The notes: a model not told the origin generated them from the sequence alone. Positions 1,966-29,991 are shown, numbered from the stretch's first letter. The stretch: 64,000 bases of DNA from an uncultured bacterium (GCA_965651925.1 CBFGUK010000005.1:357-64356); one strand, 5' to 3'. A program made the numbers and translations.

Positions 1966-2748
1966 GTGATGGATCTGGCGATTCGTGGGCGGGCGGCGAT
2001 CGTCTGTGCGGCGAGCAGGGGGCTCGGGCGGGCGTGCGCGGAGGCGCTGGCGCGCGAGGGGGTGGCGGTGACGATCAACGCGCGCGATGCGGCGGTGCTC
2101 GAGGAGACGGCGACGGCGATCCGCGCCGCGAGCGGCGTCGCGGTGACCGCGGTGGCGGGCGACATCGGCCACCCCGAGACGCACGCGGCGCTGCTCGCCG
2201 CGTGTCCCGCGCCGGACATCCTGGTGACCAACAACGCCGGGCCGCCGCCCGGGCGCTTCCAGGACCAGGACGACGCCGCGTGGGCGCGCGCGATCGCGGC
2301 GAACCTGCTCGCGCCGCTGGCGCTGATCCGCGCCGTGGTCGACGGCATGGTCGAGCGCCGCTTCGGCCGCATCGTCAACATCACCTCGGCGATGGTGAAG
2401 GCGCCGCAGGCGCCGATGGGGGTGTCGGCGGGCGTGCGCTGCGGCCTGACGGCGGCGTGCAAGGCGCTGTCGCTGCAGGTCGCGTGGGCGAACGTCACCA
2501 TCAACAATCTCCTGCCCGAGCGCATCGACACCGACCGGCAGGTGCAGATGGCCGGGCTCAGTGCCGCGGTGCACGGCATCACGGTCGACGAGGCGTACGC
2601 GCGCATCCGCGCGGCGATTCCCGCCGGCCGGCTCGGCGCACCGCGCGAGGTCGGCGAGGCGTGCGCGTTTCTCTGCGGCCGCCACGCCGGCTTCATCACC
2701 GGTCAGAACCTGCAGATCGACGGCGGGGCGTACCCGGGATTGCTGTAG
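1966..2748 (+). CDS. SDR family oxidoreductase
   Basis: 260-aa ORF. Contains GRAAIVCAASRGLGRACAEALAREG (Rossmann glycine motif), NNAG, and the C-terminal GFITGQNLQIDGG typical of classical SDRs. Confidence 0.85.
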   Translation: MMDLAIRGRAAIVCAASRGLGRACAEALAREGVAVTINARDAAVLEETATAIRAASGVAVTAVAGDIGHPETHAALLAACPAPDILVTNNAGPPPGRFQDQDDAAWARAIAANLLAPLALIRAVVDGMVERRFGRIVNITSAMVKAPQAPMGVSAGVRCGLTAACKALSLQVAWANVTINNLLPERIDTDRQVQMAGLSAAVHGITVDEAYARIRAAIPAGRLGAPREVGEACAFLCGRHAGFITGQNLQIDGGAYPGLL

Positions 2749-2776
2749 ACGGGCAACGCGACGAGACGGAGCGGGG

Positions 2777-5604: not shown

Positions 5605-5736
5605 GGAGCAATTCGAACGCGCGCGCGATCCCTGGAGGGCGCTGCGGACGGACGTTTTCGTTCTCAGGAGGCGACGCGCTGCATGCGGGCGGGGACGCCC
5701 GCGGTTCGGGACACGTAAGCCGTGGATCCGGATCGA

Positions 5737-7991: not shown

Positions 7992-8159
7992 CGGCTCTCC
8001 TTGCTGCGTGGGCGGGACGCGGGAGGCACACGCGACGCCGCCGTGAAAATGGAGACGAGCACCTACCAAGCGTGCGTCACGCAGGTCAACGAGGATTCCC
8101 CGCGCCCCACGCCCGCCGTTGGCTGGCGTCCCCGGGCGACGCCGAGTAAGATCCCGCCG

Positions 8160-9353
8160 ATGTCCGTCAAGCGTCTCGCCATCGCGACCCTGGTGCTCGC
8201 GCTCGCCGGCCTGGTGGTCGCGGCGATGATCTCGTACACGCACGCGCAGCTGGCGCAGAACATCGGTTCGTGGTGCGACGTCAACGCGACGGTCAGCTGC
8301 TCGACGGTGCTGAGCAGCGAGCACGCCTACCTCTTCGGCCTGCCGGTGGCCTGGTTTGCCCTCGCCGCCTACGCGGCGATGGCCGTCGCTGCGGCGGTCA
8401 TTCTCGCCTCGCCGAGCGCCGCGCGCCGGCGCCAGCTCGCGACGCTGCTGTTCGTCGCATCGGCCGGCTCGGCCGTGTACTCGATCTATCTCGCCTGGAT
8501 CGCGCTCGGCGTGCTCGGCGCCGTGTGCGTGCAGTGCGCGATGCTCTATGCGGTCAACGCCGGGCTGCTCGGCGCCACCGCGCTCCTCTACGGAGCGACG
8601 CAGGGCGGAACGCGCGACCAGCAGACGTGGCAGGGACGCGCAAAGCTCATCGCCGCCGCCGCGCTCGGCGTCGTGCTCGTGCTCGCCGCCTCGATTCTCT
8701 GGAAGACGACCGCCGGTGGCGCGCCGACCACCGCCGAGGCCCTCTGCGCCCGGGAACCGGCGTTCTGCGAAAGCTATCGCAGCCTGCCGGTGGTCACGGT
8801 CGAAACGACCGGCGGCCATCACAAGGGCGGCGACGGCGCGCCGGTGGTGATCGTCGAGTTCTCCGACTTCGAGTGCGGTCACTGTGCCAAGGCGTACCGC
8901 AACCTCAAAGCCGTGCTGCCGCGCTTCCGCGACGACGTGCAGGTCCGCTTCCATCACTTCCCGCTCGACAACGCGTGCAATCCCGCGATTCCCGCCGGCG
9001 GCGGTCACCGCTTCGCGTGTCTCGCCGCGATGGCGGCCGAGTGTGCCGCCGCGCAGGGCAAGTTCTGGGAGTACCACGACACGCTGTTCGATCATCAGCC
9101 GCAGTTCGATCGCGACAGCCTGCTCGGCTACGCCGCCGATCTCGGTCTCGATCGCGAGCAGTTCCGCGCCTGTCTCGAGAGCGACGCGCCGCGTGCCGCC
9201 GTCGCGCGCGACGTCGCGCTCGCCACACAGCTCGGTGTCGCGTCGACGCCGACGTTGTTCCTCAACGGTCGCACGCTGCGCGGCGCGCCGAACGCCGATC
9301 AGCTGGGCTACGCGATCGTGCTCGAACGCAGCGCGCGTCAACGGAAGAGTTGA
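8160..9353 (+). CDS. Vitamin K epoxide reductase (VKOR) domain fused to a DsbA-like thioredoxin domain
   Basis: ATG 8160 inside ORF 7083..9353. N-terminal multi-TM part has the conserved Cys pairs (WCDVNATVSC ... CVQC). C-terminal part has VVIVEFSDFECGHCAK (CxxC thioredoxin fold). Confidence 0.85.
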   Translation: MSVKRLAIATLVLALAGLVVAAMISYTHAQLAQNIGSWCDVNATVSCSTVLSSEHAYLFGLPVAWFALAAYAAMAVAAAVILASPSAARRRQLATLLFVASAGSAVYSIYLAWIALGVLGAVCVQCAMLYAVNAGLLGATALLYGATQGGTRDQQTWQGRAKLIAAAALGVVLVLAASILWKTTAGGAPTTAEALCAREPAFCESYRSLPVVTVETTGGHHKGGDGAPVVIVEFSDFECGHCAKAYRNLKAVLPRFRDDVQVRFHHFPLDNACNPAIPAGGGHRFACLAAMAAECAAAQGKFWEYHDTLFDHQPQFDRDSLLGYAADLGLDREQFRACLESDAPRAAVARDVALATQLGVASTPTLFLNGRTLRGAPNADQLGYAIVLERSARQRKS

Positions 9354-9398: not shown

Positions 9399-9768
9399 AC
9401 TGCAAGCGGTGCGCCGCGCGCGCGACGACGCGCAACACGCGCTCGCGTCGCGCGACGACGCGTGATCGCGCACGTTGTGCAGGAAAATTCTTGACAGGAT
9501 TGGCTGCTGAGCATACAGAGGGCGCCTCTTCTTTTCGGCTCCACGCAATTACGTCTGAAATGATGCTGTTTGGGTACACGCATCGCCTTCCTTCCGGGGA
9601 GGGCGGGGCGGCGGTGCGTGTCGCGGCTGTGCATGGTGGTGTGGATGGTGGGGAGAAGCGGTGGGGTGGCGGTGAGTTAGGGAGTTGTCCCCAGGTGTGG
9701 AAAGCGGAAGCAGTCGCGTGCGGAACCGTGTCGGGATCACCAACGGTGAACACGAGGGGTGGGCGCGC

Positions 9769-11109
9769 ATGGAGGCACTGTGGTCGGCGGCACTGCCACT
9801 GCTCCAGCAACACATGGGAGCACGGAATTACGATGCCTGGATCAAACCGATCGGCTGTCAGCTCATCGACGGGGAGATCCGGCTCGAGGTGCCGAGTCGA
9901 TTCTTTCAGTCCTGGGTGACGCGACATTTCCTCCCGACGATTCGCGAGACGTTGAGCGAGTTGGCCGGGGCGCCCTGTGCGGTGCGGGTGGTGGTGGCGG
10001 ACGGGAACGGGCAGCCGCGGCCGGCGCCCGTCGCGCCGGCGCCGGCTGATGCGGCGCCGGCGCGGCCCGCGCGCCAGGCCCGCATCGGGCGGCTGATTCC
10101 GCACTACACGTTCGCGACGTTCGTCGTCGGGGCGACGAACGAGGTCGCGTTCCGCGCCGCGCAGGCGGTGAGCGCCGCGCCCGGCGTGCGCTTCAACCCG
10201 ATGTTCCTGCACGGCGGCGTCGGGCTCGGGAAGACGCATCTCATCACCGCGATCGGTCACGATCTCCTGCGCCGGCGCGCGCGCGCCCAGGTGGCGTGCG
10301 TCTCGGCCGAGGCGTTCATGAACTCGCTCATCACCGCGCTGCGGCAGGACAAGATGAACGAGTTCCGCAACCGCTTCCGGCTGATCGACGCGCTGATTCT
10401 CGACGACGTGCAATTCCTCGCCGGCAAGGAGCGCACCCAGGAGGAGTTCTTCCACACGTTCAACGCGCTGCACGACAGCCAGAAGCAGATCGTGCTGACG
10501 TCGGACAAGCCGCCGGGGGCGATCGCCGGGCTCGAGCAGCGGCTGCGCAGCCGCTTCGAGGGCGGCCTGATCGCCGACATCCATCCGCCGACGCGCGACA
10601 TGCGGCTGGCGATCCTCACGGCGAAGGCGCGTGCCCAGGGCATCGAGCTCGGCGACGAGGTGATCGAGCTGCTCGTGCAGCGCGCCGGCGCGAGCGTGCG
10701 CGAGCTCGAGGGCTGCCTCAACCGCGTCGCGGCGATGGCGGCGGTGCGCGGGACGGCGATCACCCCCGATCTGGCGCTGGCGGCGCTCGGGCCGTACGCC
10801 GCGTGCGCGCCGGCGGTGTCGGTCGAGACGATCCAGGAAACCGTCAGTCACCAGTTCGGCGTCAGCGTCGCCGACCTCGTCTCGCATCGCCGCGAGCGCG
10901 GCGTCTCCTATCCGCGCCAGCTGGCGATGTATCTCAGCCGCACGGTCGCGGCGGCGTCCTTCCCGCTGATCGGCGAGAAGTTCGGCGGCCGCGATCACTC
11001 GACCGTGATGTACGCGGTGCGGACGATCGAGAATCGGCGCGCCGCGGAGACCGGCGTCGATCAGCTCCTCGCGCGCATCGAGGGCGAGTTGCGCGAGCGG
11101 ACGCGCTGA
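9769..11109 (+). CDS. dnaA: Chromosomal replication initiator protein DnaA
   Basis: ORF 9685..11109 with the start moved to ATG 9769 (MEALWSAALPLLQQHMGARNYDAWIKPI). Contains NPMFLHGGVGLGKTHL (Walker A), LILDDVQFLAGKERTQEEFFHTFN (Walker B/sensor) and the C-terminal DnaA signature KFGGRDHSTVMYAVRTI. Confidence 0.95.
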   Translation: MEALWSAALPLLQQHMGARNYDAWIKPIGCQLIDGEIRLEVPSRFFQSWVTRHFLPTIRETLSELAGAPCAVRVVVADGNGQPRPAPVAPAPADAAPARPARQARIGRLIPHYTFATFVVGATNEVAFRAAQAVSAAPGVRFNPMFLHGGVGLGKTHLITAIGHDLLRRRARAQVACVSAEAFMNSLITALRQDKMNEFRNRFRLIDALILDDVQFLAGKERTQEEFFHTFNALHDSQKQIVLTSDKPPGAIAGLEQRLRSRFEGGLIADIHPPTRDMRLAILTAKARAQGIELGDEVIELLVQRAGASVRELEGCLNRVAAMAAVRGTAITPDLALAALGPYAACAPAVSVETIQETVSHQFGVSVADLVSHRRERGVSYPRQLAMYLSRTVAAASFPLIGEKFGGRDHSTVMYAVRTIENRRAAETGVDQLLARIEGELRERTR

Positions 11110-11285: not shown

Positions 11286-11415
11286 GCGCCCGGCCCCGGG
11301 GGGCGGAACGATTTGACAATTTGTGCGGGCGTCAAGAGAGTAGGGCATCACGCCGCTGAATAACTCCCACCGGGCCGTCGTCAGGCGCCCCACCCTGTCT
11401 GCAAAGTCGCATCCT

Positions 11416-14400
11416 ATGTTGAAGCCCGCCTGTTCTGGTCCGTTCCTGCGTTCCGCCCGCCCGGCCGTCCACCTCCTTGCCGCGGCGATGATCGGCCTCC
11501 TGTGTGGCGCGCGCGGCGCCGAGGGGCAGTTGACGCCGCGGTTCTCGACGCTTGCGCCGATCGTGGTGAACGTCGGCGAGGACCCGGGCCGGCAGGCGAT
11601 CGCCGTCGCCGACCTCGACGACGACGGGAACCTCGACCTCGTGGTCGCCGAACTGTTCGATGACCGCATCAACGTCTACTTCGGTGCCGGAGACGGCACG
11701 TTCGACGACTTCGATACATATGAGCTCGAGGTGAGCCCGCTTTCGGTCGCCATCGGCGATGTCGGCTCGCCGCTGAGCTCCGACGAGCAGGGCGCCCCCG
11801 ACGGCAACCTCGACATCGCCATCGGCAGCGATTTCGGCGGCATCGAAGTGCTCTACGGCGATGGCGACGGAGATTTCGAATCCGACGGCACGCTGTTCGG
11901 CGAGGACGACACGCTCGCGGTCATCGGCATGGTCATCGACGATTTCGACGAGGGCGACGGCAACGACATCGCGGTGCTCGATGAGGACGGCGTCGTCCTC
12001 CTCTGCAATGACGGCAGCGGCGGCCTCGCCGTCTGCGGCGCCGAGGAGCCCATCGAGGTCGGCTTCGACGTGATCGACATCGTCGGCGGCGACTTCGATG
12101 GCGACGGTGATGCCGACGTCGCGGTGCTCGACCGCGAGGATCAGCGGGTGTCGATCCTGCGCGGCAACGGCGACGGCACCTTCGCGGCGCCGGTGCAGCG
12201 CGACGTGTCCGGTCAGGCGGATCTCGAGGACGAGTTCGCCGCCGACATGGACGCCGGCTTCCTCAACAGCGACGGGCTCACCGATCTCGTGGTCATCAAC
12301 CACGGCACGTTCGATGCGAACTTCCTCGTCGCCGTCCTCGGCGCCGCGAACGGGAACTTCGGCACGCGCGAGGCGGTCGCCGATTTCGAGGGCGCGGCCG
12401 TGACACTCGCCGACTTCGACGACATGGGCGGCACGGACGCCATCGTCGGCTACCTGGATGGCGGCGTCTCGGCGAACCTCGGCGTCGGCAACGGCACGTT
12501 CGACGATCCGTTCACCCCGATCGGCACGAACTCGATCGGCCGCGTCAGCCTGCTGGTGAGTGGCGATTTCGATGGCGACGTGCTGCCCGACTTCCTCGCG
12601 CTGAACGAGGACGGCACGCAGTTGACCATCGCGCTCAACGCCTCCGACGAGGCGACGCCGACCGAGGGCCCGACGGGCACGCCGACGCCGACGATCACCG
12701 GCACGCCGCCGCCGACGAGCACGGTGACGCCGACCCCGACCCTGACGCCGACGGACACGGCAACGCCGACGCCGACGCCGATTCCGACCGCGAACTACGG
12801 GCGCTGCAACCTCACCGCCGGCGGCCAGGCGCTCGGCGGCATCGTCGCCGCGCCGCTCGACGGCGACGGCACGCCGGACCTCGCGGTCACCGATCCGGCG
12901 GCGAATGCCGTCCGCATCCTCTTCAACACCACGGCGGCGCAGCAGCAGTTGCGCGGCTGCGCCATGAGCATGCTGGCGGAGCCGATCGAGGTCGCTCAGA
13001 CGACGGTCGCCGTGGCGAACGCGCCGCGCGCCCTGGCGGCCGTCGATGCCGAACGCGACGGCGACACCGACCTGGCGGTCTGCGCCGGCAATGCAGTGGT
13101 CCTGCTGCGCAACGACGGGCAGGGCGGCTTCACCGCCGAGACGCCGATCAGCGTCGGCACGAATCCGGTCGCGATCATCGCCGACTACCCGACCGACCCC
13201 GGCGATCCGACCCGTCGCACGCCGCTCGACCTCAACCGCGACGGCCGCACCGACCTCGTCGTCGCGAATGCCGGCAGCGCGTTCCTCACCATCCTCTACG
13301 GCGCCCCCGGCGGCGGCTTCACCGTGCACAACCAGGGCATCCCGGGCCAGGCGCGCGCCGTGACCGCGGCCGACTACGACGGCGACGGGCGCATCGATCT
13401 CGTCGCCAGCCGCGGCACCGATGCCGTGTTCCTGCGCCAGACCGGGATCGACGGCAGCAACCGCTCGGTGTTCCAGTCGAGCGACTTCGGCACCGGGGCG
13501 ACGATCATCGCCCTGGAGAGCGGCTTCTTCGACGAGAACCGCTTCCCCGATCTGCTCGTCACGCGCGGCGGCGTGGGACAGCTGCAGCTCTTCATCAACA
13601 ACCTGTTCGCCGCCGGTGGCGAGATCAGCGTGTTCGAGCCGGCGGCATCCGGCATCGGCCTGTTCAGTCCCGGCGATCGCCGCGCCGATGCGGTCATCGC
13701 CGGCACGTTCGAGATGAAGCCGGTCCTGCAGTTCGCCTACGGCAGCGGCAGCGGCGACTTCCCGCCGCCGATCGTCATGCCGTTCGATCTGCGCAGCCGC
13801 CCGGTCGCGCTTGCGGTCGTCGATGTCGACAGCGACGGGGTGCACGACGTGGTGACGGCAAACGGCGACGGCACGATCACCGTGCTGCTCAGCAGCGTGC
13901 CGCCGCCAACGCCGACGCCGACCGTCACCCCGACGGCGACCGCCACCGGCACCGACACCGTGACGCAGACGCCGAGCGAGACGCCGACGGAGACGCCGAC
14001 GGCGACGCCCACCGACACCGCGGCGCCGACCGGCACCGTGACCGGAACGCGCACGCCGCGGCCGGGCGACACGCCGACGGTGACGCCGACGAAGGCGGGC
14101 ATCTTCGAGGTCAGCAGCTGCGCAATCGGCGACGGCGCACAGACGCCGCTGCCCGTCGGGCTGCTCGGCCTGGCGCTGGCGCTGCTCGGCCCGCTGGCGC
14201 GGCGCGTGCGTCGGCCGGCGCTGCCGGCGCGTGCGGGGCGACGGTTCCTGGCCGCGCTCGCGGCGTCGGCCGCGGCGCTGCCGGCCCTGCCGGCCGACGC
14301 GCAGCCGGTGCCCGCGTACGTGCGCTGCACGGTGCCCGGCACGCAGCTCGGAACCGGCAGCGGCCTGGTGCCCGGTGCCGCGGGAGACCTGAACGGCGAT

Positions 14401-15726
14401 CGCTCGGCGGATCTCGTGCTGCTCGATGCGACGCGCGCGGTGGTCGCGCTCACCGATGCCGAGCAGTTCCGCGCCGGCGCCTGCCCGGAACCGGTCACCG
14501 CCCGTCCGCTCGAGGCGGTGACCCGGCCCCAGGCGGCGGCGATCGCGCTGACCGGCACCGATCTCTTCCCCGATCTCGCCGTGACGACGCTGACGCCACC
14601 GGTTGCCTCGGTGTTGAGCGGCGACGGCAACGGCGGCTTCCCCGCCGGTGTCAGCTCCGTGCCGCTGTCCCAGCCCGGCCCGGTCGCGGTGGCGGCGATC
14701 ACCGGCGGCACCGAGCCGGACCTCGTCGTCGGTGACGGCGCCTCGCTGCTGCTGCTCGAGCTGCGCCTCACCGAGGGCACGCTGCGCTACGAGATCGCCA
14801 GGACGCTGGTGGAGAGCGGCAGCCGGGTGCAGGCCGTCGGCGTTGCCGATTTCAACGGCGATGCCCGGCTCGACGTCGTCGCCATCGATCTCGTCGGCGT
14901 ACGCGTTTTCCTCCAGGAGGATGACGGCGAGTTCACGGAGCAGGGCTCGTTCGACATCGGCAGCTCCGAGGACCCGCTCTTTCCGCTCGACATGCGCGTG
15001 GCCGATCCGCTCGTGACCGGCGACTTCAACCGCGATTTCATCCCCGACCTCGCCGTGATCACCACGACCGGCCCGCTGCTCGTCTATCTCGGCCGGCGCG
15101 ACGCCGCCGGCTTCGCCTTCGAGCGCAGCGCGGTGCTCGAGTCGGCAAACGGCTTCGCCGATCTCGCGCTCGGCGATCTGAACGATGACCTGCGGCCCGA
15201 CATCGCCGTCGCCGATGCGACGACCCGCACGGTCCGCTTCTTCCTCGGTGACGGGAGCGGCGGGTTCACCGACGGCGGCAGCCGCACGCTCGGCGACACG
15301 CCGACCGGCGTCCTGCTCGCCGACGTCGACGCCGATGGTCGTCCCGATCCCGTGCTGACGACCGCCGGCCGGTCGGTGGAGTTCTTCCTCAGCAGTGCGC
15401 CGGCGCCGACCGCGACGCCGACGTTCACCGACACCCCGGAAGCCACCGAGACGCCGACCGTCACGCCGACCGAAACGGTGACCGAAACGCCGTCCGATAC
15501 GCCAACCGAAACCCCGACGGCGACGCCGACCGGGACGGTCACGGGTACGCGCACGCTCACCGTCACCCGCACCGGCACCGTCACGCCGACGGTGACCTGC
15601 GACGGGTTCTGCGTGCAGGGCGAGGGGTGTGCGAACGTCTCGGGTGGCGAGGGCAACGCCGGTGCGGTGCTGCCGCTGCTGATCGTCGCCGCGCTGCTGT
15701 TCGTCACCCGCCGCGTGCGCTTCTGA
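11416..15726 (+). CDS. Giant secreted FG-GAP/VCBS-repeat protein with Pro/Thr linkers and two Cys-containing C-terminal-anchor-like segments
   Basis: 1436-aa ORF. Signal peptide MLKPACSGPFLRSARPAVHLLAAAMIGLLCGARGAEGQ. Many FG-GAP-like units (DLDDDGNLDLVV, GDFDGDGDADVAV, DYDGDGRIDLV, DFNGDARLDVV, DVDADGRPD). PT linkers lie near 12655-12790, 13905-14090 and 15400-15600. The antisense 1483-aa ORF is Arg/Gly junk. Confidence 0.8.
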   Translation: MLKPACSGPFLRSARPAVHLLAAAMIGLLCGARGAEGQLTPRFSTLAPIVVNVGEDPGRQAIAVADLDDDGNLDLVVAELFDDRINVYFGAGDGTFDDFDTYELEVSPLSVAIGDVGSPLSSDEQGAPDGNLDIAIGSDFGGIEVLYGDGDGDFESDGTLFGEDDTLAVIGMVIDDFDEGDGNDIAVLDEDGVVLLCNDGSGGLAVCGAEEPIEVGFDVIDIVGGDFDGDGDADVAVLDREDQRVSILRGNGDGTFAAPVQRDVSGQADLEDEFAADMDAGFLNSDGLTDLVVINHGTFDANFLVAVLGAANGNFGTREAVADFEGAAVTLADFDDMGGTDAIVGYLDGGVSANLGVGNGTFDDPFTPIGTNSIGRVSLLVSGDFDGDVLPDFLALNEDGTQLTIALNASDEATPTEGPTGTPTPTITGTPPPTSTVTPTPTLTPTDTATPTPTPIPTANYGRCNLTAGGQALGGIVAAPLDGDGTPDLAVTDPAANAVRILFNTTAAQQQLRGCAMSMLAEPIEVAQTTVAVANAPRALAAVDAERDGDTDLAVCAGNAVVLLRNDGQGGFTAETPISVGTNPVAIIADYPTDPGDPTRRTPLDLNRDGRTDLVVANAGSAFLTILYGAPGGGFTVHNQGIPGQARAVTAADYDGDGRIDLVASRGTDAVFLRQTGIDGSNRSVFQSSDFGTGATIIALESGFFDENRFPDLLVTRGGVGQLQLFINNLFAAGGEISVFEPAASGIGLFSPGDRRADAVIAGTFEMKPVLQFAYGSGSGDFPPPIVMPFDLRSRPVALAVVDVDSDGVHDVVTANGDGTITVLLSSVPPPTPTPTVTPTATATGTDTVTQTPSETPTETPTATPTDTAAPTGTVTGTRTPRPGDTPTVTPTKAGIFEVSSCAIGDGAQTPLPVGLLGLALALLGPLARRVRRPALPARAGRRFLAALAASAAALPALPADAQPVPAYVRCTVPGTQLGTGSGLVPGAAGDLNGDRSADLVLLDATRAVVALTDAEQFRAGACPEPVTARPLEAVTRPQAAAIALTGTDLFPDLAVTTLTPPVASVLSGDGNGGFPAGVSSVPLSQPGPVAVAAITGGTEPDLVVGDGASLLLLELRLTEGTLRYEIARTLVESGSRVQAVGVADFNGDARLDVVAIDLVGVRVFLQEDDGEFTEQGSFDIGSSEDPLFPLDMRVADPLVTGDFNRDFIPDLAVITTTGPLLVYLGRRDAAGFAFERSAVLESANGFADLALGDLNDDLRPDIAVADATTRTVRFFLGDGSGGFTDGGSRTLGDTPTGVLLADVDADGRPDPVLTTAGRSVEFFLSSAPAPTATPTFTDTPEATETPTVTPTETVTETPSDTPTETPTATPTGTVTGTRTLTVTRTGTVTPTVTCDGFCVQGEGCANVSGGEGNAGAVLPLLIVAALLFVTRRVRF

Positions 15727-22231: not shown

Positions 22232-23392
22232 TCATGCGTGCATCGCGGCGAGAATCTCGGCGGTGTGTTCGCCGAGGCGCGGGGCCGGGCGACGGATGGC
22301 CCACGGCGTCGCCGACAGGCGGTACGGGGCGCCGGGAACGGTGACCGGCGTGCCGCCGGCGTCGAGTACGGCGAAGAAGCCGCGCGCCTTGAGGTGCGGC
22401 GAGGCGAGCAGGTCTCCCATCGTCGAGACCGGCGCGAACGGAATGCGGCGCCGCTGCGCGGCGGTGTACACGTCCATCACCGCGTGCTCGCCTGCCCACT
22501 CCTGGAGGAAGAGCTTGAGCGCGTCCCAGTTCGCGCCGCGGCTCAGGCGATCGGCGAACAGCTCGAGGCCGGCCCACTCCGGTGAGCCGATCATGCGGAC
22601 GAACTCCTGCCACTGGTGTTCCTCGACGCAGCAGATGAACACCCAGCCGTCGCGGCACTCGAGGAAGTCGAGCGGCTGGATCGGCTTGCGGCCGAGGCGC
22701 GAGGCGATCAGTCCCTGGTACGGCCAGTACTCGAACGTCAGCTCGAGGATTGCGGCCAGTGCCTGCTGGATCGAGATGACGACGTGCTGGCCGCGGCCGG
22801 TCCGACGGCGCGCGAGCAGGGCGCCGAGCGCGGCGAGTGCGGCATTGACGCCGCCCTGGTAGGCGGCCTGCTGGCCGAAGGGCTTGAGCGGCGGCAGGTC
22901 CTCCGCCTCCGGCCCGCCGCCGTTCAGATACGCGATGCCGCCGGCGTTCCACAGCGTCAGGTCGGTCGCCGCCCAGTCGCGCTTCGGGCCGTGCAGGCCG
23001 TACGGCGTGATCGAGGTCATCACCAGCCGCGGATTGACGGCCGCGAGCTCCTCGTACACCAGCCCGTGGGCGGCCATCGCCGCCGGCGGGACGTCGTGGA
23101 CGAGGAGATCGGCGTGTCGCGCCAGGGCGGTGAGGGCCGTGCGGTCGGCGGCGGTCGACGGGTCGAGGACGATGCCGCGCTTGTTGGTGTTCAGATAGAG
23201 GAAGAAGCCGCTGCGCTCCGGGTCGGGGATGCCGCCGGGGTAGGGACCGCGGTGGCGCGCCGGATCGCCCGCCGGGGGTTCGACCTTGATCACCTCCGCG
23301 CCGAGGTCGGCGAGCAGCTTGCCGGCATATGCCGCCGCGACCTGCTCGCCGCATTCGATGACCCGCAGCCCGCCCAGCGCCGTCGGCGACAT
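22232..23392 (-). CDS. CaiB/BaiF family (class III) CoA-transferase
   Basis: 386-aa ORF. Contains LGGLRVIECGEQVAAAYAGKLLADLGAEVIKVEPP and ...ERSGFFLYLNTNKRG... Confidence 0.9.
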   Translation of the reverse strand: MSPTALGGLRVIECGEQVAAAYAGKLLADLGAEVIKVEPPAGDPARHRGPYPGGIPDPERSGFFLYLNTNKRGIVLDPSTAADRTALTALARHADLLVHDVPPAAMAAHGLVYEELAAVNPRLVMTSITPYGLHGPKRDWAATDLTLWNAGGIAYLNGGGPEAEDLPPLKPFGQQAAYQGGVNAALAALGALLARRRTGRGQHVVISIQQALAAILELTFEYWPYQGLIASRLGRKPIQPLDFLECRDGWVFICCVEEHQWQEFVRMIGSPEWAGLELFADRLSRGANWDALKLFLQEWAGEHAVMDVYTAAQRRRIPFAPVSTMGDLLASPHLKARGFFAVLDAGGTPVTVPGAPYRLSATPWAIRRPAPRLGEHTAEILAAMHA

Positions 23393-23622
23393 GGCCGGCG
23401 CTTAGCGCAGCGGCGTGCCGATCGGCAACCGCGGGCGTGCGCTCCCGCTTGCGCGCCAAGCGCTTGCGCGGCTTGACAACTTTCCGAACGACCGGCAAAG
23501 CTCCGACCATCAGCAAGACATCGTGGAGAGTGGCGCACGCGCTGCGCACCGGGCGGTGCATCTGCACCAGAGCCTGACCCGCGAATCCAACCATCAATCC
23601 ACTGCCGACGCCGAGGGAGGGT

Positions 23623-24996
23623 GTGGTGAGCCGCATGCGAAAAGTGACGAGAGGAACGTTCGCAACGTGGGGACTGCTTGCCGTTGCGGGCATCGCACTG
23701 GCCGGAACCGCGGCGCTGTCCTTTGCTCCGCATGTCGAGATTTCGCTCGGTCCGCCCGACTGCACGGCCGGCGTCGACTGCTCGGAAGGCGCGTTCGCCG
23801 TGGTCGCCGGTGACTTCAACGGCGACGGCAACCTCGACGTCGCCACCGCGAACAACGGGTCGGACGACGCGACGGTGTTCTTCGGCGACGGCGCGGGCGG
23901 CCTGACCGTGGCGCAGACGCTGACCGCCGGCGTGGCGCCGAGCGCGATCGCCACCGGCGATCTCGACGGCGATGCCGTGCTCGATCTCGCGGTCGCCAAC
24001 GACATCGGCAACTCGGTCAGCTTCTTCCTCAACGACGGCTCGGGCACGTTCGGCGAGGCGACGACGCTCGATACCGGCTCGTCGCCGAGCGGCATCGTGC
24101 TCGCGGATTTCAACGGTGACGGCAACACCGATGTCGCCACCGCGGATCTCTTCGGCGGGACGGTGTCGGTGCGGCTCGGCAACGGTGACGGCACGTTCGG
24201 CGAGATCCTCACCACCGAGACCGGCGGCGGACCGATCAGCCTGGCCGCCGGACGGCTGGACGCCGGCGACGTGCTCGATCTCGCCGTGAGCCTGAATGAC
24301 GACGCGGTCATGCTGCCGCTGCTGGGCAATGGCGACGGCACCTTCACGCTCGGCGAGCCGAGCGCGGTCGAGGAGTCGCCGCAGGGGCTGACGATCGCCG
24401 ATCTCGACGGCGACGGCGATGCCGACGTGGCAGTGGCCACGGAATTCTTCGATACGCTCTCGGTGCTGCTCGGCAACGGCGACGGCACGTTCGCCGAGGC
24501 GGTGCACTACGAGGTCGGCGCCTATCCCGAGACGGTCGTTGCCGCCGATCTGAACGGCGACGGCATTCCCGATCTCGCCACGTCCGACAATCTCGGCACG
24601 CTCGAGTTCGACGGCAGCGTCTCGGTACTGCTCGGCAACGGCGACGGCACCTTCGCCGACGCGGAGACCTTCGAGGCCGGCGTCGGCCCGTGGGGCATGG
24701 TGGCCGCGGACCTCAACGGCGACCGCCTGCCGGACCTGATCACGGCCAACTTCGATGCCGAAGACATCTCGCTGCTCGAGAACACCGGCACGCCGCCGAC
24801 GCCGAGCTGCGTCGGCGACTGCAACGGCGACGGCGAGGTGTCGATCAACGAGCTGATCACCGGCGTCAACATCGCGCTCGGCAGCGCCCCCGTCAGCTCC
24901 TGCGAAGCGATCGACGAGAACGGCAACGGCGAAGTGACGATCAACGAGCTGATCTCGGCGGTCAACAACGCTTTGACCGGCTGTCCTGCAGCATAA
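23623..24996 (+). CDS. Secreted FG-GAP repeat (beta-propeller) protein with C-terminal dockerin-like double EF-hand module
   Basis: 457-aa ORF with a signal peptide (TFATWGLLAVAGIALAGTAA). About 7 repeats of the GDFNGDGNLDVA / LLGNGDGTF type. C-terminus is CVGDCNGDGEVSINELITGVNIALG...CEAIDENGNGEVTINELISAVNNALTGC. Confidence 0.8.
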   Translation: MVSRMRKVTRGTFATWGLLAVAGIALAGTAALSFAPHVEISLGPPDCTAGVDCSEGAFAVVAGDFNGDGNLDVATANNGSDDATVFFGDGAGGLTVAQTLTAGVAPSAIATGDLDGDAVLDLAVANDIGNSVSFFLNDGSGTFGEATTLDTGSSPSGIVLADFNGDGNTDVATADLFGGTVSVRLGNGDGTFGEILTTETGGGPISLAAGRLDAGDVLDLAVSLNDDAVMLPLLGNGDGTFTLGEPSAVEESPQGLTIADLDGDGDADVAVATEFFDTLSVLLGNGDGTFAEAVHYEVGAYPETVVAADLNGDGIPDLATSDNLGTLEFDGSVSVLLGNGDGTFADAETFEAGVGPWGMVAADLNGDRLPDLITANFDAEDISLLENTGTPPTPSCVGDCNGDGEVSINELITGVNIALGSAPVSSCEAIDENGNGEVTINELISAVNNALTGCPAA

Positions 24997-25124
24997 CCGC
25001 GCCCCGTGGCACCTTTGACAACATCTTAATTCGTGAGGTAGCAGTGGCACACTCGTTCAGACCCGGGACACACGTGGGACAGCGCGGCGCAGCGTCGGCA
25101 GGACGCGCGCGAGGAGGCGCACGG

Positions 25125-26060
25125 ATGCTGCAGAGGGTTGCGTTGGTGGTGGGGGGAGCACTGTGCGTCATCGGCGCCAGCGCCGTTCACGCCCAACCCT
25201 GTCCGACCCCGGTGGCGGTCACCACCGCCTGCACCGGCAGCAGCTGTGCGGTGCTCGACATCGGCGACGCGAACGGCAACAGCACCACCGCCGGCACGGT
25301 GGAGATCAGCTTCTCGCAGGCCCCCGACAACGGGCAGGCGCAGAGCGGCGCGGATGATGTCGCGGCGATCGCCTTCACCGTCGGCATGCCCGGCACCGGC
25401 AGCGGCGAGCCGCCGCTGGTCTTCGACTGCGTCGAGGGCGCGCTGGCTGCGGGCGCGGTCGAGGTGGATGCCGCCATTGCCGACACGTTCCAGGTGGTCG
25501 TCGAGAACGCGCAGTGCACGAACCGCAATCGCTGCCTGTGCCCGACCGGCGACGGCCAACAGCGTGACGACTTCGTCAACCTCGCCGTCTACGGTCCGAA
25601 GACGCTTCCCGAGCAGGGGCCGGTGACCATCCCGGCGCTGCCCGACAGCGGCGTGCTCGTCCGCCTGAACCTCAAGGCGGCCGAGGGTGCGACCGGCATG
25701 GTGCCGCTCAAGGTGTTCTCGGCGCTCGATGCGACCCGGCCGCAGTTCGCTGCCAACCTGTCGATCGGCGATCAGTCGGCCTGTGACGTCAGCGCCACCG
25801 AAGCCGGCGTGAGCACGGTGCAGCTGAACGGCGGCACGTTCACGATCGGGGGCGTCACCCCGCCGCCGACCGGCTGCGTCGGCGACTGCAATACCGACGG
25901 CAGCGTCGCGATCAACGAGCTGATCATCGGCGTGAACATCGCCCTCGGGTCGACCCCGGTCGGGAACTGTTCCTCGTTCGACGTCAACAGCAATGGCAGC
26001 GTCGAAATCAACGAGCTCATCAGCGCGGTCAACAACGCCCTGAACGGCTGTCCTTCGTAG
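25125..26060 (+). CDS. Secreted protein: cohesin-like beta-sandwich plus C-terminal dockerin-like module
   Basis: ATG 25125 (GAGGAGG upstream) inside ORF 24690..26060. Signal peptide MLQRVALVVGGALCVIGASAVHAQ. Central part (AGTVEISFSQ..., VAAIAFTVGMPG..., GVLVRLNLKAAEGATGMVPLKV) resembles a cohesin by eye. C-terminus is CVGDCNTDGSVAINELIIGVNIALG...FDVNSNGSVEINELISAVNNALNGC. Confidence 0.65.
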   Translation: MLQRVALVVGGALCVIGASAVHAQPCPTPVAVTTACTGSSCAVLDIGDANGNSTTAGTVEISFSQAPDNGQAQSGADDVAAIAFTVGMPGTGSGEPPLVFDCVEGALAAGAVEVDAAIADTFQVVVENAQCTNRNRCLCPTGDGQQRDDFVNLAVYGPKTLPEQGPVTIPALPDSGVLVRLNLKAAEGATGMVPLKVFSALDATRPQFAANLSIGDQSACDVSATEAGVSTVQLNGGTFTIGGVTPPPTGCVGDCNTDGSVAINELIIGVNIALGSTPVGNCSSFDVNSNGSVEINELISAVNNALNGCPS

Positions 26061-26169
26061 GACGGCTTGCGTGCCGCGCAGCAGTCCGTATTGTTAGCGT
26101 TCGAGAGTTGCTTGGGAACATCCGTAACGCTATGAACCGCCAACCGAACTATCCAGGGGAGGGCAAGAG

Positions 26170-27360
26170 ATGAGCAAGTACGGATTCAAGACCGCCGCGA
26201 TCGCGGCGGGCGCCATGATGATGGCGGCCAGCGCGCACGCGGTGGTCATCCTCGGCGATGAGGCCGCCAGCGGCGCACCCGGCGACACCGTGGAGTTCTC
26301 CGTCAGCGTCGACACGGAGGGTGAGGACGTCGCGGGTACGCAGAACGACATCACCTTCGGCGAGGGCGTTGCGGTCGCCGCGCGGGCGAACGGCCGTCCG
26401 GACTGCACGGTGAACGAAGAGATCAACAAGGGCGGCACGTCGTTCGCGTTCCAGCCCGCGGGCTGCAGCGGCGATGCGTGCACCGGCGTGCGCGCGCTCG
26501 TGCTGGCGCTCGACAACGTCGACCCGATTCCCGACGGCTCGACGCTCTACACCTGCAACGTGGTGATCGCCGAGGACGCGACGGACGGTGAGAAGACGAT
26601 GTCGATCACCAACACCGGCGCCAGCGATCCCGCCGGTGCGGCGCTGACGACCTCGGGTGTCGATGGCCGCGTGACCGTCGGCGGCGGTGGCGCCGCGGAC
26701 GCGAACATCATCATCGGCGATGCCTCGGGCAACGCGGGCGACACCGTCGCCGTGACCGTGACCCTCAACACCGGGACGGACGTCGCCGGGACGCAGAACG
26801 ACATCACGTTCGCGCCTCCGCTGTCGGTCGCGGCACGCGCGAACGGCCGTCCGGACTGCACGGTGAACGAGACGATCAACAAGGGCGGCACGTCCTTCGC
26901 GTTCCAGCCGGCGGGCTGCAGCGGCACGGAGTGCACCGGTGTGCGCTCGCTCGTGCTGGCGCTCGACAACGTCGATCCGATTGCCGATGGCTCGGCACTG
27001 TACACCTGCAACGTCGTGATCGCCGAGGACGCCGAGGACGGCGACTACGAGCTCGCCTGCTCGAACCCCGGCGCGAGCGATCCGAACGGCGGCGCGCTGG
27101 TCGCCGAGTGCGAGCCTGGCACGGTGACCGTTGGCGGTGGTGGCGATGTTACCCCGACGCCGACCGAGACGCAGGTCGAGGCGACGTCCACGCCGACCGT
27201 CCAGGATGGCACGCCGACCCGCACGCGCACCCCGGGTGGTGGCGGCCGCAGCAACGACGACGACGGCTGCGCGGTCGTGGCGCCGGCGGACAGCACCAGC
27301 GCCTGGCTGCTGCTGCTGCCGTTCGCTGCGCTGCTCTGGTGGCGCCGCCGCTCGCACTGA
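26170..27360 (+). CDS. Cell-surface protein with two tandem cohesin-like domains, a PT linker and a Cys-containing C-terminal anchor
   Basis: 396-aa ORF with signal peptide ...AMMMAASAHA. Two 152-aa repeats begin GDTVEFSVSV / GDTVAVTVTL and contain VAGTQNDITF and LYTCNVVIAEDA, a cohesin-like pattern. Then TPTPTETQVEATSTPT..., then DDDGCAVVAPADSTSAWLLLLPFAALLWWRRRSH. Confidence 0.7.
   Translation: MSKYGFKTAAIAAGAMMMAASAHAVVILGDEAASGAPGDTVEFSVSVDTEGEDVAGTQNDITFGEGVAVAARANGRPDCTVNEEINKGGTSFAFQPAGCSGDACTGVRALVLALDNVDPIPDGSTLYTCNVVIAEDATDGEKTMSITNTGASDPAGAALTTSGVDGRVTVGGGGAADANIIIGDASGNAGDTVAVTVTLNTGTDVAGTQNDITFAPPLSVAARANGRPDCTVNETINKGGTSFAFQPAGCSGTECTGVRSLVLALDNVDPIADGSALYTCNVVIAEDAEDGDYELACSNPGASDPNGGALVAECEPGTVTVGGGGDVTPTPTETQVEATSTPTVQDGTPTRTRTPGGGGRSNDDDGCAVVAPADSTSAWLLLLPFAALLWWRRRSH
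26281..27144 (+). repeat. Intragenic tandem duplication (2 x about 456 nt) encoding the two cohesin-like domains
   Basis: aa 38-175 and aa 190-325 align without gaps for most of their length. One shared stretch is ARANGRPDCTVNE(E/T)INKGGTSFAFQPAGCSG. Confidence 0.85.
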
Positions 27361-27391
27361 GCCGCGACGCAGCATCGGACCTGAACGAGTG

Positions 27392-27425
27392 GAGGGGGCT
27401 GAGCAATCAGCCCCCTCTTCTTTTT
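27392..27425 (+). terminator. Rho-independent terminator
   Basis: GAGGGGGCTGA (27392-27402), loop GCAA, TCAGCCCCCTC (27407-27417), then TTCTTTTT. Confidence 0.85.
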
Positions 27426-27500
27426 GCATCGCCGAATTGAGCCCGGGGCTGCGCCGCGCTGCCACGGCGACGCACGTCACGTCCCGCCCCTCCCGATGAC

Positions 27501-28271
27501 ATGAGCGAGTTTGCCGGCAAACGGGTCGCGATCTTCGGCGTCGCGAACGACCACAGCATCGCCTGGGCGATCGCGCAGCGCTTCCATGCGGCCGGCGCCG
27601 AGCTGGCGCTCACGTATCCGAACGAGGCGATCGAGAAGCGCGTGCGGCCGCTCGCCGAGACGCTCGGCGTCTCCTGTGTGCTGCCGTGCGACGTCACCCG
27701 CGACGCCGAGATCGAGGCCGTGTTCGCGGCGCTGCGTGACCGCTGGGGCACGCTCGACGCCGTCGTCCATTCACTCGCCTTCGCCGGGCGCGACGAGCTC
27801 AAGGGTCGCTACGTCGACACCACCCGCGACGGCTTCCATTTGGCGCTCGACGTGAGCGCCTATTCGCTGGTCGCCATGGCGCGCTGCGCCGAGCCGCTGC
27901 TCGCCCCGCAGCGCGGCGCGATCGTCACCATGACCTACCTCGGTGCCGAACGCGTCATCCCGCACTACAACGTGATGGGCATCGCCAAGGCGGCGCTGGA
28001 GGCGAGCGTGCGCTATCTCGCGTGGGATCTCGGCGCGAGCGGCGTCCGCGTCAACGCCATCTCCGCCGGCCCGCTGCGCACGCTGTCGTCGGCCGGCATC
28101 GCCGGCTTCAAGACCATGCTGCATCATCACGAGGAGCACGCGCCGCTGCGCCGCAACATCAGCGGCGAGGAGGTCGCGGCCGCGACGCTCTATCTGTGCA
28201 GCGCGGCGGCGGGCGGCATCACCGGCGAGGTGCTGCACGTCGACGGCGGCTACAACGTCATGGGCATGTGA
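27501..28271 (+). CDS. fabI: Enoyl-[acyl-carrier-protein] reductase (NADH)
   Basis: 256-aa ORF. Contains GKRVAIFGVANDHSIAWAIA, ...HSLAFA..., ...YNVMGIAKAALEASVRYLA (Y-x6-K) and ...ISAGPLRTLS... Confidence 0.9.
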   Translation: MSEFAGKRVAIFGVANDHSIAWAIAQRFHAAGAELALTYPNEAIEKRVRPLAETLGVSCVLPCDVTRDAEIEAVFAALRDRWGTLDAVVHSLAFAGRDELKGRYVDTTRDGFHLALDVSAYSLVAMARCAEPLLAPQRGAIVTMTYLGAERVIPHYNVMGIAKAALEASVRYLAWDLGASGVRVNAISAGPLRTLSSAGIAGFKTMLHHHEEHAPLRRNISGEEVAAATLYLCSAAAGGITGEVLHVDGGYNVMGM

Positions 28272-28420: not shown

Positions 28421-29182
28421 GTGTATCCCGTCCTCTTCGAGCTCTTCGGCATCCCCATCGAGGCCTTCTGGGTCACGGTGTTTCTCGGGTTCCTCGCCGC
28501 GCTGTTCGTCGTGCGCGCCGAGCTGATCCGCCAGGGGCACGACGGCACGGCCGCCTACGACCTGATCCTCTGGGCCTACATCGGCGGCTTCGTCGGGGCG
28601 CGACTCTTCATGATCGTCACCGCGTGGCCGGACTTCCAGCGCGACCCGCTCGGGCTCCTGTTCTCGGGTAGCGGCTGGGTGTGGCAGGGCGGTGTCGTCG
28701 GCGGCGCGCTCGCCGTCGCCTGGAAGGCACGTGCGCTCGGGCTGCCGCTCGGTGACGTCGCGGACTTCTCCGGCCTCGCGCTGGCCATCGGCCAGGCGAT
28801 TGGTCGTGTCGGCTGTCAGCTTTCCGGCGATGGCGACTACGGGGTCCCGACCGATCTGCCGTGGGGGATGAGCTATCCCGATGGCGTCGTGCCGACCACC
28901 GAGCGCGTGCACCCGACACCGGTGTACGAGACGATCGCGCTGCTGGCGATCTTCGTTGTACTCTGGCGGCGGCGCACGCGCCCGCACCTGCCCGGCGCGC
29001 TCTTCGGCGAGTACCTCGTCGCCACGGGTGTGCTGCGCTTCGGGGTCGAGTTCGTCCGCCGCAACCCGGCGATCGGGCTCGGGCTGACGCTGGCACAGTG
29101 GGTCAGTCTCGCATCGATCGCCATTGGCGTCGTCGTCCTGCTGCGCCGCCCGGCGCCGGCGCTGCCGGCCGGCGCACCCTGA
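28421..29182 (+). CDS. lgt: Prolipoprotein diacylglyceryl transferase family protein (copy 1)
   Basis: 253-aa ORF, polytopic. Contains IGRVGCQLSGDGDYGVPTDLPWGMSYPDGVVPTTERVHPTPVYE (Lgt-like HPxxxYE signature). Confidence 0.8.
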   Translation: MYPVLFELFGIPIEAFWVTVFLGFLAALFVVRAELIRQGHDGTAAYDLILWAYIGGFVGARLFMIVTAWPDFQRDPLGLLFSGSGWVWQGGVVGGALAVAWKARALGLPLGDVADFSGLALAIGQAIGRVGCQLSGDGDYGVPTDLPWGMSYPDGVVPTTERVHPTPVYETIALLAIFVVLWRRRTRPHLPGALFGEYLVATGVLRFGVEFVRRNPAIGLGLTLAQWVSLASIAIGVVVLLRRPAPALPAGAP

Positions 29183-29991
29183 TGCGTCCGATCCTGTTCC
29201 ATATCGGCGAGATCGCGATCCCCAGCTTCTGGGCGATGGCGTTCCTCGCCTTCGTCGTCGCGCTGCTCGTCATCCGCCGCGACATGGCCGAACGTGGCTG
29301 GCCGGAGCGGCACGCCTACGATCTGGTGCTCTGGGCCTACGTCGGCGGCTGGGTGGGGGCGCGACTGTTCGTCATCCCGACCGGCTGGGCGTACTTCGTC
29401 GACGATCCCTTCCGCTTCCTCATCTCGTCGAGCGGCTGGGTGTGGTACGGCGGCGTGATCGGCGGCGCGGTGGCCGTCCTCGCCTGGGCGTATCGCAGCG
29501 GCCTGCCGCTGCGCACGGTCGGTGACATCGCCGCCCCGGCGCTGGCGATCGGGCTGGCGATCGGGCGCATCGGCTGCCAGCTCGCCGGCGACGGCGATTA
29601 TGGCGTTCCCACCGATCTGCCGTGGGGAATGGCGTATCCCGACGGCGTCGTGCCGACCACCGAGCGCGTGCATCCGACACCGCTCTACGAGCTGGCCGCG
29701 TACCTCGCGCTGTTCGCGTTCCTCTGGCACGCGCGCGGCCGCGGCCTGCCGCCGGGGCACCTGATCGGCCACTATCTGCTCTGGTCGGGCGCGGCGCGGT
29801 TCGCGGTCGAGTTCCTGCGCCGCAATCCCGACTGGCTGTTCGGCCTCACCACCGCGCAATGGATGTCGCTCGGCAGCATCGCGATCGGCGTGTGGCTGCT
29901 GCGTACGGGCGCCGCACGCGACGCCGGCGTGCGCCCCCGTCCCGCACCCGGGCCACCCGAGACCGTCCGGCAGCCGCCTTCCGCTCCCTGA
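29182..29991 (+). CDS. lgt: Prolipoprotein diacylglyceryl transferase family protein (copy 2, tandem paralog)
   Basis: ATG 29182 overlaps the upstream TGA by 1 nt. Contains MRPILFHIGEIAIPSFWAMAFLAF and IGRIGCQLAGDGDYGVPTDLPWGMAYPDGVVPTTERVHPTPLYE. Confidence 0.8.
   Translation: MRPILFHIGEIAIPSFWAMAFLAFVVALLVIRRDMAERGWPERHAYDLVLWAYVGGWVGARLFVIPTGWAYFVDDPFRFLISSSGWVWYGGVIGGAVAVLAWAYRSGLPLRTVGDIAAPALAIGLAIGRIGCQLAGDGDYGVPTDLPWGMAYPDGVVPTTERVHPTPLYELAAYLALFAFLWHARGRGLPPGHLIGHYLLWSGAARFAVEFLRRNPDWLFGLTTAQWMSLGSIAIGVWLLRTGAARDAGVRPRPAPGPPETVRQPPSAP

Follow-up and report, generated by a model that had tools for sequence, protein, structure and literature searches.

A three-gene cohesin/dockerin-like cassette with an FG-GAP propeller in uncultured Binatota

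Can the plug-and-socket principle of the cellulosome serve proteins that have little to do with cellulose? This question is raised by three neighbouring genes, hereafter G1, G2 and G3, which occupy positions 23623 to 27360 of a 64,000-nucleotide (nt) stretch of DNA from an uncultured soil bacterium (GCA_965651925.1, CBFGUK010000005.1:357-64356; G+C content about 71%). The whole stretch is referred to as the window. A preliminary description, made from the sequence alone, had proposed that the three genes copy cellulosome organisation, with a beta-propeller as cargo, an adaptor and an anchored scaffold, in a non-cellulolytic context. The domain logic of this proposal holds: a propeller with a dockerin-like module, a cohesin-fold protein with the same module, and a protein with two cohesins and an anchor are kept together as a cassette in at least 13 further genomes. 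The ordered hierarchy of cargo, adaptor and anchor is not supported, only one class of dockerin-like module being visible in these proteins (see below). The non-cellulolytic context is borne out as well, no glycoside hydrolase having been found in any window open reading frame (ORF) scanned. We consider it reasonably probable that the cassette forms the core of a calcium-dependent cohesin-dockerin system of Binatota, in which the dockerin-like module, hereafter the plug, is predicted to dock into the cohesins.

Domain architecture of the cassette

G3 (26170..27360, plus strand) encodes a protein of 396 amino acids, which homology and an AlphaFold2 model identify as an anchored scaffoldin-like protein. 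The model, built from 40 homologues, has a mean predicted local distance difference test (pLDDT) score of 82.8 and displays two beta-sandwich domains scoring above 90. These are cohesin domain 1 (amino acids 25–170; 26242..26679) and cohesin domain 2 (amino acids 178–321; 26701..27132), each with four conserved cysteines. A Foldseek search of the model against the PDB returns cohesins on top, including the type II cohesin dyad of ScaA (3l8q, E-value 3.5e-11). Matches to structures of CaCohA2 reach target-normalised template modelling scores (TMt) of 0.80 for 6kgc_A, at a root-mean-square deviation (rmsd) of 2.7 Å, and 0.82 for 6kgf_C (rmsd 2.2–2.7 Å for these structures), and the non-cellulosomal cohesin of Archaeoglobus fulgidus (2xdh) is matched at TMt 0.75. 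Solved cohesins overall give E-values from 3.5e-11 to 1e-7, TMt 0.70–0.82 and rmsd 2.2–3.6 Å. The second domain is also recognised by the Pfam model Cohesin (PF00963), at 29.2 bits against a cut-off of 24.1, in a marginal and partial match that covers amino acids 179–218 and profile positions 2–43 of 139. No carbohydrate-binding module (CBM) was found on G3 with Pfam. Conservation within the domains peaks on strands 3, 5 and 6 (numbered in their order in the model): top-residue frequencies are 0.83, 0.82 and 0.75, respectively, compared with 0.67 for the domain mean. Solved type I cohesins bind the dockerin through the sheet of strands 8-3-6-5. Matched to cohesin strands by order rather than by superposition, the conserved strands of G3 may correspond to this dockerin-binding face.

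The cohesins are followed by a Pro/Thr-rich linker (amino acids 322–360; 27133..27249), which is predicted to be disordered by its composition and by pLDDT below 50, and by a tail (27250..27360) consisting of the motif DDDGC, a transmembrane helix and RRRSH before the stop. Two tandem cohesin-like domains, a linker and a plain membrane anchor had been expected here. The domains and the linker are as expected, and it is the anchor that has to be revised. The tail, DDDGCAVVAPADSTSAWLLLLPFAALLWWRRRSH, matches TIGR03901, the family of MYXO-CTERM signals, at 22.7 bits in the whole protein and 28.9 bits on its own (cut-off 20), and the cysteine of DDDGC, the hydrophobic helix (amino acids 378–395 in the model) and the three arginines are invariant in 40 homologues. 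Given this match and the invariant Cys and Arg residues, the membrane anchor is therefore read as a sorting signal. In Myxococcus, MYXO-CTERM tails are cleaved by the CPBP protease myxosortase, leaving a surface-tethered protein, and the proteins concerned, which are predicted to be lipidated, are delivered to the surface through the type II secretion system (PMC11980579).

G1 (23623..24996, plus strand; 457 amino acids from a GTG start, with an alternative ATG at codon 5) encodes a secreted FG-GAP propeller of the seven-blade type with a C-terminal plug. Pfam assigns FG-GAP_3 at E 1.4e-43 over 6 stretches and FG-GAP at E 1e-21, and seven DxNGDG-type loops are readable, i.e. the FG-GAP blades are repeated and carry putative calcium loops. 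The earlier reading of G1 as an FG-GAP propeller with a dockerin-like double calcium loop is thereby upheld. The plug itself, located by a motif scan at 24808..24984 (amino acids 396–454, 59 residues from first to last cysteine), runs CVGDCNGDGEVSINE...DENGNGEVTINE...GC. The last 62 residues of the protein contain this module as CVGDCNGDGEVSINELITGVNIALGSAPVSSCEAIDENGNGEVTINELISAVNNALTGC.

The plug is built from two 12-residue loops of calcium-binding type, DCNGDGEVSINE and DENGNGEVTINE, spaced by 32 residues, with a helix after each loop. Both loops have the ligand positions 1, 3, 5, 9 and 12 of EF-hands (D1, N3, D/N5, S/T9, E12) in register. In 79 related proteins the distance from the first to the last cysteine is almost always exactly 59 residues, and all four cysteines are invariant in 81 of 81 modules (79 related loci and the two of the window), so that the bracketing of the modules by conserved cysteines, noted before, extends to the whole family. 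The plug shows near-symmetry between its halves (INELIxGVNIAL and INELIxAVNNAL). Such internal symmetry accompanies a dual binding mode in clostridial dockerins, and by analogy the plug could bind in two orientations as well. The four cysteines of the plug, together with the four conserved cysteines of each G3 cohesin, suggest disulfide bonds, which would fit export of these proteins into an oxidising compartment. As read from the sequence, all three proteins begin with Sec-type signal peptides.

G2 (25125..26060, plus strand; ATG at 25125, stop ending at 26060) encodes a secreted protein of 311 amino acids, in a family of proteins of about 305–315 amino acids, with a divergent cohesin-fold domain (amino acids 35–243; 25227..25853; about 205 amino acids) and a plug located by motif scan (amino acids 251–309; 25875..26051). 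The AlphaFold2 model has a mean pLDDT of 81.9, with values above 90 over amino acids 35–243, and cohesins account for all of its best 45 Foldseek matches in the PDB (6kgc_A with TMt 0.76 and E 2.9e-08; 2xdh with TMt 0.74). The models of G2 and G3 both display the nine-stranded flattened beta-sandwich that superposes on solved cohesins. Compared to a classical cohesin, the G2 domain has about 60 additional residues, and it contains an invariant Cys-rich insert, ENAQCTNRNRCLCP...YGPK.LP..GPV.IP. In the plug region the model places helices at amino acids 263–273, 279–281 and 295–306, an arrangement of loop-helix, short helix and loop-helix. Hence the plug consists, at low pLDDT, of two tandem loop-helix segments of about 22 residues each with no entering helices, which may tentatively be read as dockerin-type F-hand topology rather than as a four-helix EF-hand pair.

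Conservation, host group and plug-bearing proteins

Homologues of G3 (380) and G2 (1,085) all come from metagenomes and metagenome-assembled genomes (MAGs). Where a source is named, it is mostly Candidatus Binatia or 'Deltaproteobacteria bacterium', and some G3 homologues are labelled by their source as 'MYXO-CTERM domain-containing protein' or 'Cohesin domain'. Binatia belong to the candidate phylum Binatota and not to Myxococcota. The order G1-G2-G3 is found in at least 13 further Binatia genomes, at identities down to 35–41% (loci L001, L003, L083-L088, L090, L101, L103, L105 and L114, with partial copies at L109 and L113), and chance can be excluded because the same three-gene order recurs in so many genomes. 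At least 11 other loci have a G1 orthologue at the same place in the cassette. G3 contains between 1 and 3 cohesins, depending on the locus. A large subclade has the cassette flanked by two coenzyme A (CoA)-transferase genes on one side and by fabI with one or two lgt genes on the other, and in at least one genome (L003) the flanking genes are different. Cohesins and plugs also occur together at the level of genomes and loci: 15–16 of the 24 genomes with top plug matches are among the 26 genomes with G3-type cohesins, and nearly all cohesin loci with enough flanking sequence have a plug nearby.

Within the window, six-frame translation reveals only the plugs of G1 and G2. A genome scan with the plug yielded 234 confirmed stretches, and the best 80 of these 234 belong almost without exception to Binatia-type MAGs, in which loci are numerous per genome; the MAG JANRJF01 alone has the plug on at least 16 contigs. 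The position of the plug is either C-terminal or immediately behind the signal peptide. A comparison with 1.84 billion representative proteins gives 9,762 relatives of the G1 plug at E<=1e-3, of which 3,380 reach E<=1e-10; some matching proteins have up to 11 plug stretches. Four large proteins of 1,200–1,550 amino acids (P0361, P0362, P0406, P0489) contain 4 to 11 tandem plug-matching stretches. The motif CxGDC[N/D]G[N/D]G is also present in Planctomycetota and a few other phyla (among the matches listed, at least 120). Close relatives of plug-bearing proteins are mostly left without a name by their sources or are called 'hypothetical protein'.

The proteins that carry plugs are diverse and mostly not related to carbohydrates. 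Pfam assigns FG-GAP to 7 of 79 plug carriers, propellers of the BNR, Sortilin or PSII_BNR type to 5, and cytochrome P460 to 3. Single cases include a MauG-type di-haem peroxidase, propellers of the virginiamycin-B-lyase and Kelch types, and trypsin, RHS, cadherin-like and Ig-like proteins. Glycoside hydrolase (GH) families account for 2 of the 79 among the Pfam matches listed, one GH5 cellulase and one GH94-type protein. A word-indexed protein search with a 61-residue plug returned only short fragments out of 157 candidates and is uninformative on cargo.

Potential scaffoldins are likewise varied. In bacterium HR30 (L092, BEIG01000035.1, 3157-9054) a single protein of 1965 amino acids displays seven cohesins, the first three of them divergent. 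Its N-terminal part consists of a variant plug (CTGNCDGTGEVTINQLIRGVRMAMG...) behind the signal peptide, an unassigned domain of about 200 residues and a long Pro/Thr linker; the cohesins follow, and the protein ends in a Cys-rich C-terminal domain of about 450 residues. Fusions of a G3-type cohesin with a plug are found at two loci (L093, L104), and paralogous two-cohesin proteins with MYXO-CTERM tails at another (L097). At L108, a 700-residue protein (2559-4658) ends in two tandem plugs with inserted cysteines, and a one-cohesin protein next to it (4631-5674) has a Cys-rich stalk and a MYXO-CTERM-like tail (GGGGCSCEID...RWRLRRPRA).

Two flavours of plug can be distinguished, GVNIALG..CPSFD and MVNIALG..CxAGD..EITIDEI. 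The second (..MVNIALG..C.AGD..GEITI[DN]EI..) occurs at eight loci (L028, L040, L042, L046, L049, L056, L063, L074) and in the cassettes L003, L088 and L090, and both flavours coexist in some genomes, e.g. JBGQHM01 and CAVSQF01. The second flavour could represent a second specificity. The cassettes concerned also carry different cohesin motifs (AFRP, LSTENV), a correspondence that is inseparable from shared ancestry.

Proposed docking of plugs into cohesins and rival explanations

Docking of the plug into the cohesins is consistent with the folds, with the position of the plug at protein termini, with the conserved association of plug genes and cohesin genes, and with the presence of multi-cohesin scaffoldins. 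Several results weigh against it, and they concern each of its elements. On the side of the sockets, no Pfam or NCBIfam match was obtained for the N-terminal 240 residues of G2, and a profile-profile comparison of the G2 and G3 families aligns only 26 columns at 64% probability. Since this comparison is nearly blank, the cohesin status of G2 is taken from its structural model, and the earlier assignment of a cohesin-like domain plus the common module to G2 stands for the module and, at the level of the fold, for the domain, but not at the level of sequence profiles. On the side of the plug, the G2 model, the only one to include it, has pLDDT of only 47–71 in this region, and the full-length proteins G1 and G2 reach only 12.9 and 13.5 bits with the Pfam model Dockerin_1 (PF00404; gathering cut-off 22.9 bits). 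A profile of the plug family searched against the PDB finds calmodulins and other EF-hand proteins first and has no dockerin among its best 60 matches. With respect to hierarchy, the plugs of G1, G2 and the general cargo have an identical consensus at 59 of 59 positions. The cargo/adaptor/anchor hierarchy of cellulosomes needs at least two cohesin-dockerin specificities, and an adaptor hierarchy is not supported here because these plugs form one class. G2 may thus extend or branch assemblies, cap sockets, self-associate or compete with cargo. With respect to anchoring, a curated study judged MYXO-CTERM matches outside Myxococcota to be false positives and located the myxosortase core, among cultured genomes, only in Myxococcota and Bradymonadales; the relatives of the present host are Candidatus Binatia, of the phylum Candidatus Binatota, and hence fall into neither group. 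No match to the CPBP family was found in the window ORFs scanned, and scanning related loci totalling 1.7 Mb for CPBP motifs gave no candidate either.

The sequence of the plug also permits a different explanation, namely that it is a calcium-binding, disulfide-stapled tag for stabilisation or export that does not bind cohesins, with G3 being an Ig-like adhesin and the genes sharing a surface process. Besides failing with Dockerin_1, the plug is recognised by the EF-hand models above their cut-offs: for the G1 module on its own, EF-hand_1 yields 32.5 bits (cut-off 25.4) and Dockerin_1 19.4 bits, below the cut-off, in an alignment over profile positions 2–47 of 57 that spans both loops. Thus, the Pfam assignments anticipated for the cassette are obtained for FG-GAP and, marginally, for Cohesin in G3 alone, and are not obtained for Dockerin_1 in G1 and G2. 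Across the plug family, EF-hand_1 is found in 56 of 56 modules, and Dockerin_1 at E<=1 in 44 of 56 (best 5.4e-6). When aligned by hhalign to the solved dockerins of CelS and CelD, the plug is in register at both loops, with E 4e-4 and 35% probability. PDB sequence searches with G1, G2 and G3 yielded nothing useful, only calerythrin for the plug region. By sequence, the plug therefore appears to sit between EF-hand and Dockerin_1, and we call it dockerin-like because it has the dockerin architecture while remaining below the curated sequence threshold. The calmodulin matches, the wide distribution of the module (the 9,762 representatives mentioned above), its occasional long tandem arrays and the occurrence of the CxGDC motif in other phyla would all suit a general tag. 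On the other hand, a tag does not account for the loop-helix topology lacking entering helices, for a strictly terminal placement by signal peptides or C-termini, or for the conserved pairing with cohesin-fold genes, including seven-cohesin proteins and cohesin-plug fusions; moreover, the structures most similar to G2 and G3 are cohesins in particular and not generic Ig folds. We therefore regard a mere tag as unlikely.

The FG-GAP propeller of G1 might instead recall integrins. G1 would then be the head of a split integrin-alpha-like adhesion receptor, and the sandwiches of G3 its legs of the thigh or calf type with a membrane anchor. Integrin alpha ectodomains do appear in the Foldseek list of G3 (3fcs_A, E 3.8e-08), but with TM-scores of 0.1–0.24 and rmsd of 13–17 Å, compared to TMt 0.7–0.82 and rmsd 2–3.6 Å for single cohesins. 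Such a receptor would also leave G2 unexplained and would not account for the same plug on dozens of unrelated proteins. We rejected this very improbable reading for its poor structural scores. A true polysaccharide-degrading cellulosome, with its enzymes encoded elsewhere in the genome, could point to the GH5 cellulase and the GH94-type protein among the 79 plug carriers. However, these are the only two cargo proteins with glycoside hydrolase families among the Pfam matches listed, the constant cargo of the cassette is a propeller, and neither a CBM on G3 nor a glycoside hydrolase in the scanned window ORFs was found; such a cellulosome is exceedingly improbable and was rejected on cargo content.

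Based on the docking of plugs into cohesins, we hypothesize the following assembly. All three proteins would be exported through their Sec signal peptides. G3 would act as anchoring scaffoldin, whose MYXO-CTERM-type tail would be cleaved and whose conserved cysteine would presumably be lipidated, so that a flexible Pro/Thr stalk would present two cohesin sockets at the cell surface. The 59-residue plug, a calcium-loaded double loop-helix held by two disulfides, would insert into the 8-3-6-5 face of a cohesin. The integrin-like propeller of G1, probably a ligand- or surface-binding protein, would be the cargo that constantly accompanies the cassette, and G2, with one divergent socket and one plug, would extend or branch the assembly. 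Dozens of other secreted proteins with an N- or C-terminal plug would compete for the same sockets, and larger scaffoldins with up to seven sockets and a plug of their own would raise the capacity.

An extension of this model to the whole phylum appears possible to us, although somewhat doubtful: a general display network across Binatota, in which each genome encodes dozens of unrelated secreted proteins whose Cys-stapled plugs are received by scaffoldins with one to seven sockets on a MYXO-CTERM-like, possibly lipidated tether. Such a network would turn the cellulosome principle into an organiser of the surface proteome in a diderm, non-cellulolytic and uncultured phylum, and would extend myxosortase-type sorting beyond Myxococcota. 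If docking itself is true, cohesin-dockerin assembly would not be confined to anaerobic fibre degraders, and a widespread phylum of soils and sediments would possess a general surface organisation of secreted proteins. It would provide a function for at least 3,380 protein clusters (50% identity; plug match at E<=1e-10), a test case for MYXO-CTERM-type sorting outside Myxococcota, and a new disulfide-stabilised cohesin-dockerin pair for engineering under oxidising conditions. All modules are small, so that a direct test with recombinant domains is feasible.

Genomic surroundings and comparison with known systems

The genes of the cassette all lie on the plus strand, with intergenic gaps of 128 and 109 nt. 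A region of presumed promoter function (23393..23622, plus strand, from the ORF map) separates G1 from a divergent CoA-transferase gene. No match to the sigma-70 consensus was found upstream of G1; the promoter is thus putative, and a single transcription unit of G1, G2 and G3 is plausible. Downstream of G3, a hairpin resembling an intrinsic terminator, with a T-run (27391..27428, plus strand; 12-bp stem at 27391-27418 with 8 G-C pairs), is the sole such site in 23200-27700, in agreement with the strong terminator that the preliminary description had placed at the end of the three genes. It is followed on the plus strand by fabI (27501-28271), lgt (28421-29182) and a second lgt (about 29185-29991); the two tandem lgt paralogues share about 60% identity with each other, and neither reaches the NCBIfam equivalog cut-offs. 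The cassette is likewise followed by fabI and one or two lgt genes in at least 10 other MAGs. It would be pure speculation to assume that the tandem Lgt enzymes lipidate the C-terminal cysteine of the MYXO-CTERM tail.

The VKOR-DsbA oxidase that had been reported for the window is indeed present, 14 kb from the cassette (6810-9353, plus strand). It is a fusion within a frame of 847 codons, with VKOR at amino acids 459–588 and a DsbA/thioredoxin domain at 667–836; the first approximately 450 residues have no family match, and there is a weak NCBIfam match to a thioredoxin-like (seleno)lipoprotein family. The gene dnaA (9676-11109, plus strand) is located between this fusion and a large FG-GAP gene; no GC-skew inflection is visible across the window. 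This large gene (11344-15726, plus strand) is an open frame of 1460 codons that encodes FG-GAP repeats (FG-GAP_3, E 7e-59) and lacks a plug. Its middle part contains a MYXO-CTERM-like tail (SSCAIGDG..., a hydrophobic stretch, RRVRR), which is followed, with no stop, by an apparent new signal peptide, and it could represent two genes, a fusion or a sequencing error. With TIGR03901, the C-terminal tail of the frame at 15.7 kb reaches 19.6 bits, just short of the cut-off of 20, and with JDVT-CTERM 19.1 bits. A MYXO-CTERM-like tail on a plug-less FG-GAP frame suggests that propellers are displayed in two ways, directly and via the plug. Farther away, an S-adenosylmethionine (SAM, S-box) riboswitch (52612-52725, minus strand; 82.5 bits against a gathering score of 44.4) precedes a ThiF-family gene and two pyridoxal-phosphate-dependent (PALP) genes on the minus strand. 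Two minus-strand frames of 566 and 305 codons (4036-5736 and 63082-63999) have high third-position GC and no Pfam match.

Among known systems, clostridial cellulosomes share with the Binatia system the tandem cohesin-fold sockets on linker-rich scaffoldins, the plug of about 60 residues with a duplicated calcium loop and helix at protein termini, proteins that have a plug as well as a socket, and scaffoldins with several cohesins (up to seven). In contrast, the Binatia host is of the Gram-negative type, its cargo is mostly not carbohydrate-active, and no CBM was found on G3; two features that define cellulosomes, carbohydrate-active cargo and a CBM on the scaffoldin, are thus missing. The anchor is a MYXO-CTERM-type tail rather than an S-layer homology domain or a sortase signal. 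The plug has glutamate at loop position 12 and four invariant cysteines, the cohesins have four conserved cysteines each, and one specificity class of plugs is visible. Non-cellulosomal cohesin and dockerin modules were reportedly catalogued by Peer et al. in 2009, mostly as isolated modules. These resemble the present case in that their hosts do not degrade cellulose, and one of them, 2xdh, is among the best structural matches, whereas Binatia possess a conserved three-gene cassette and a phylum-wide set of multiple scaffoldins and cargo proteins.

The 'planctosome' of freshwater Planctomycetes, a hypothetical complex of anchor, adaptor and cargo inferred from genomes, is likewise a non-cellulolytic, computationally inferred cohesin-dockerin system of a Gram-negative-type cell (PMC6461901). 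It differs in its phylum, in a lamin-tail domain as anchor and in a peptidase cargo, and its description includes no conserved FG-GAP cargo, MYXO-CTERM tail or Cys-stapled plug (PMC6461901). MYXO-CTERM/myxosortase sorting in Myxococcota (TraA; PMC11980579; 10.1101/2023.06.07.544157) has the same tripartite tail, with an invariant cysteine, a transmembrane helix and an Arg-rich end, but here the host belongs to Binatota and the signal is carried by a cohesin scaffoldin. Beyond cellulose, the amylosome of Ruminococcus bromii is an established use of cohesin-dockerin assembly and mucinolysomes are predicted ones (PMC9112005, PMC12997984). Both belong to Firmicutes and centre on glycan degradation, whereas the cargo of Binatia is not centred on one enzyme class. 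Our literature search found no work that links Binatia or Binatota with cohesins or dockerins. Compared to all these systems, the host phylum is new, as are the conserved three-gene cassette with its propeller cargo and the Cys-stapled, EF-hand-like plug, together with the Cys-containing cohesins, the MYXO-CTERM-type anchor and the breadth of the cargo.

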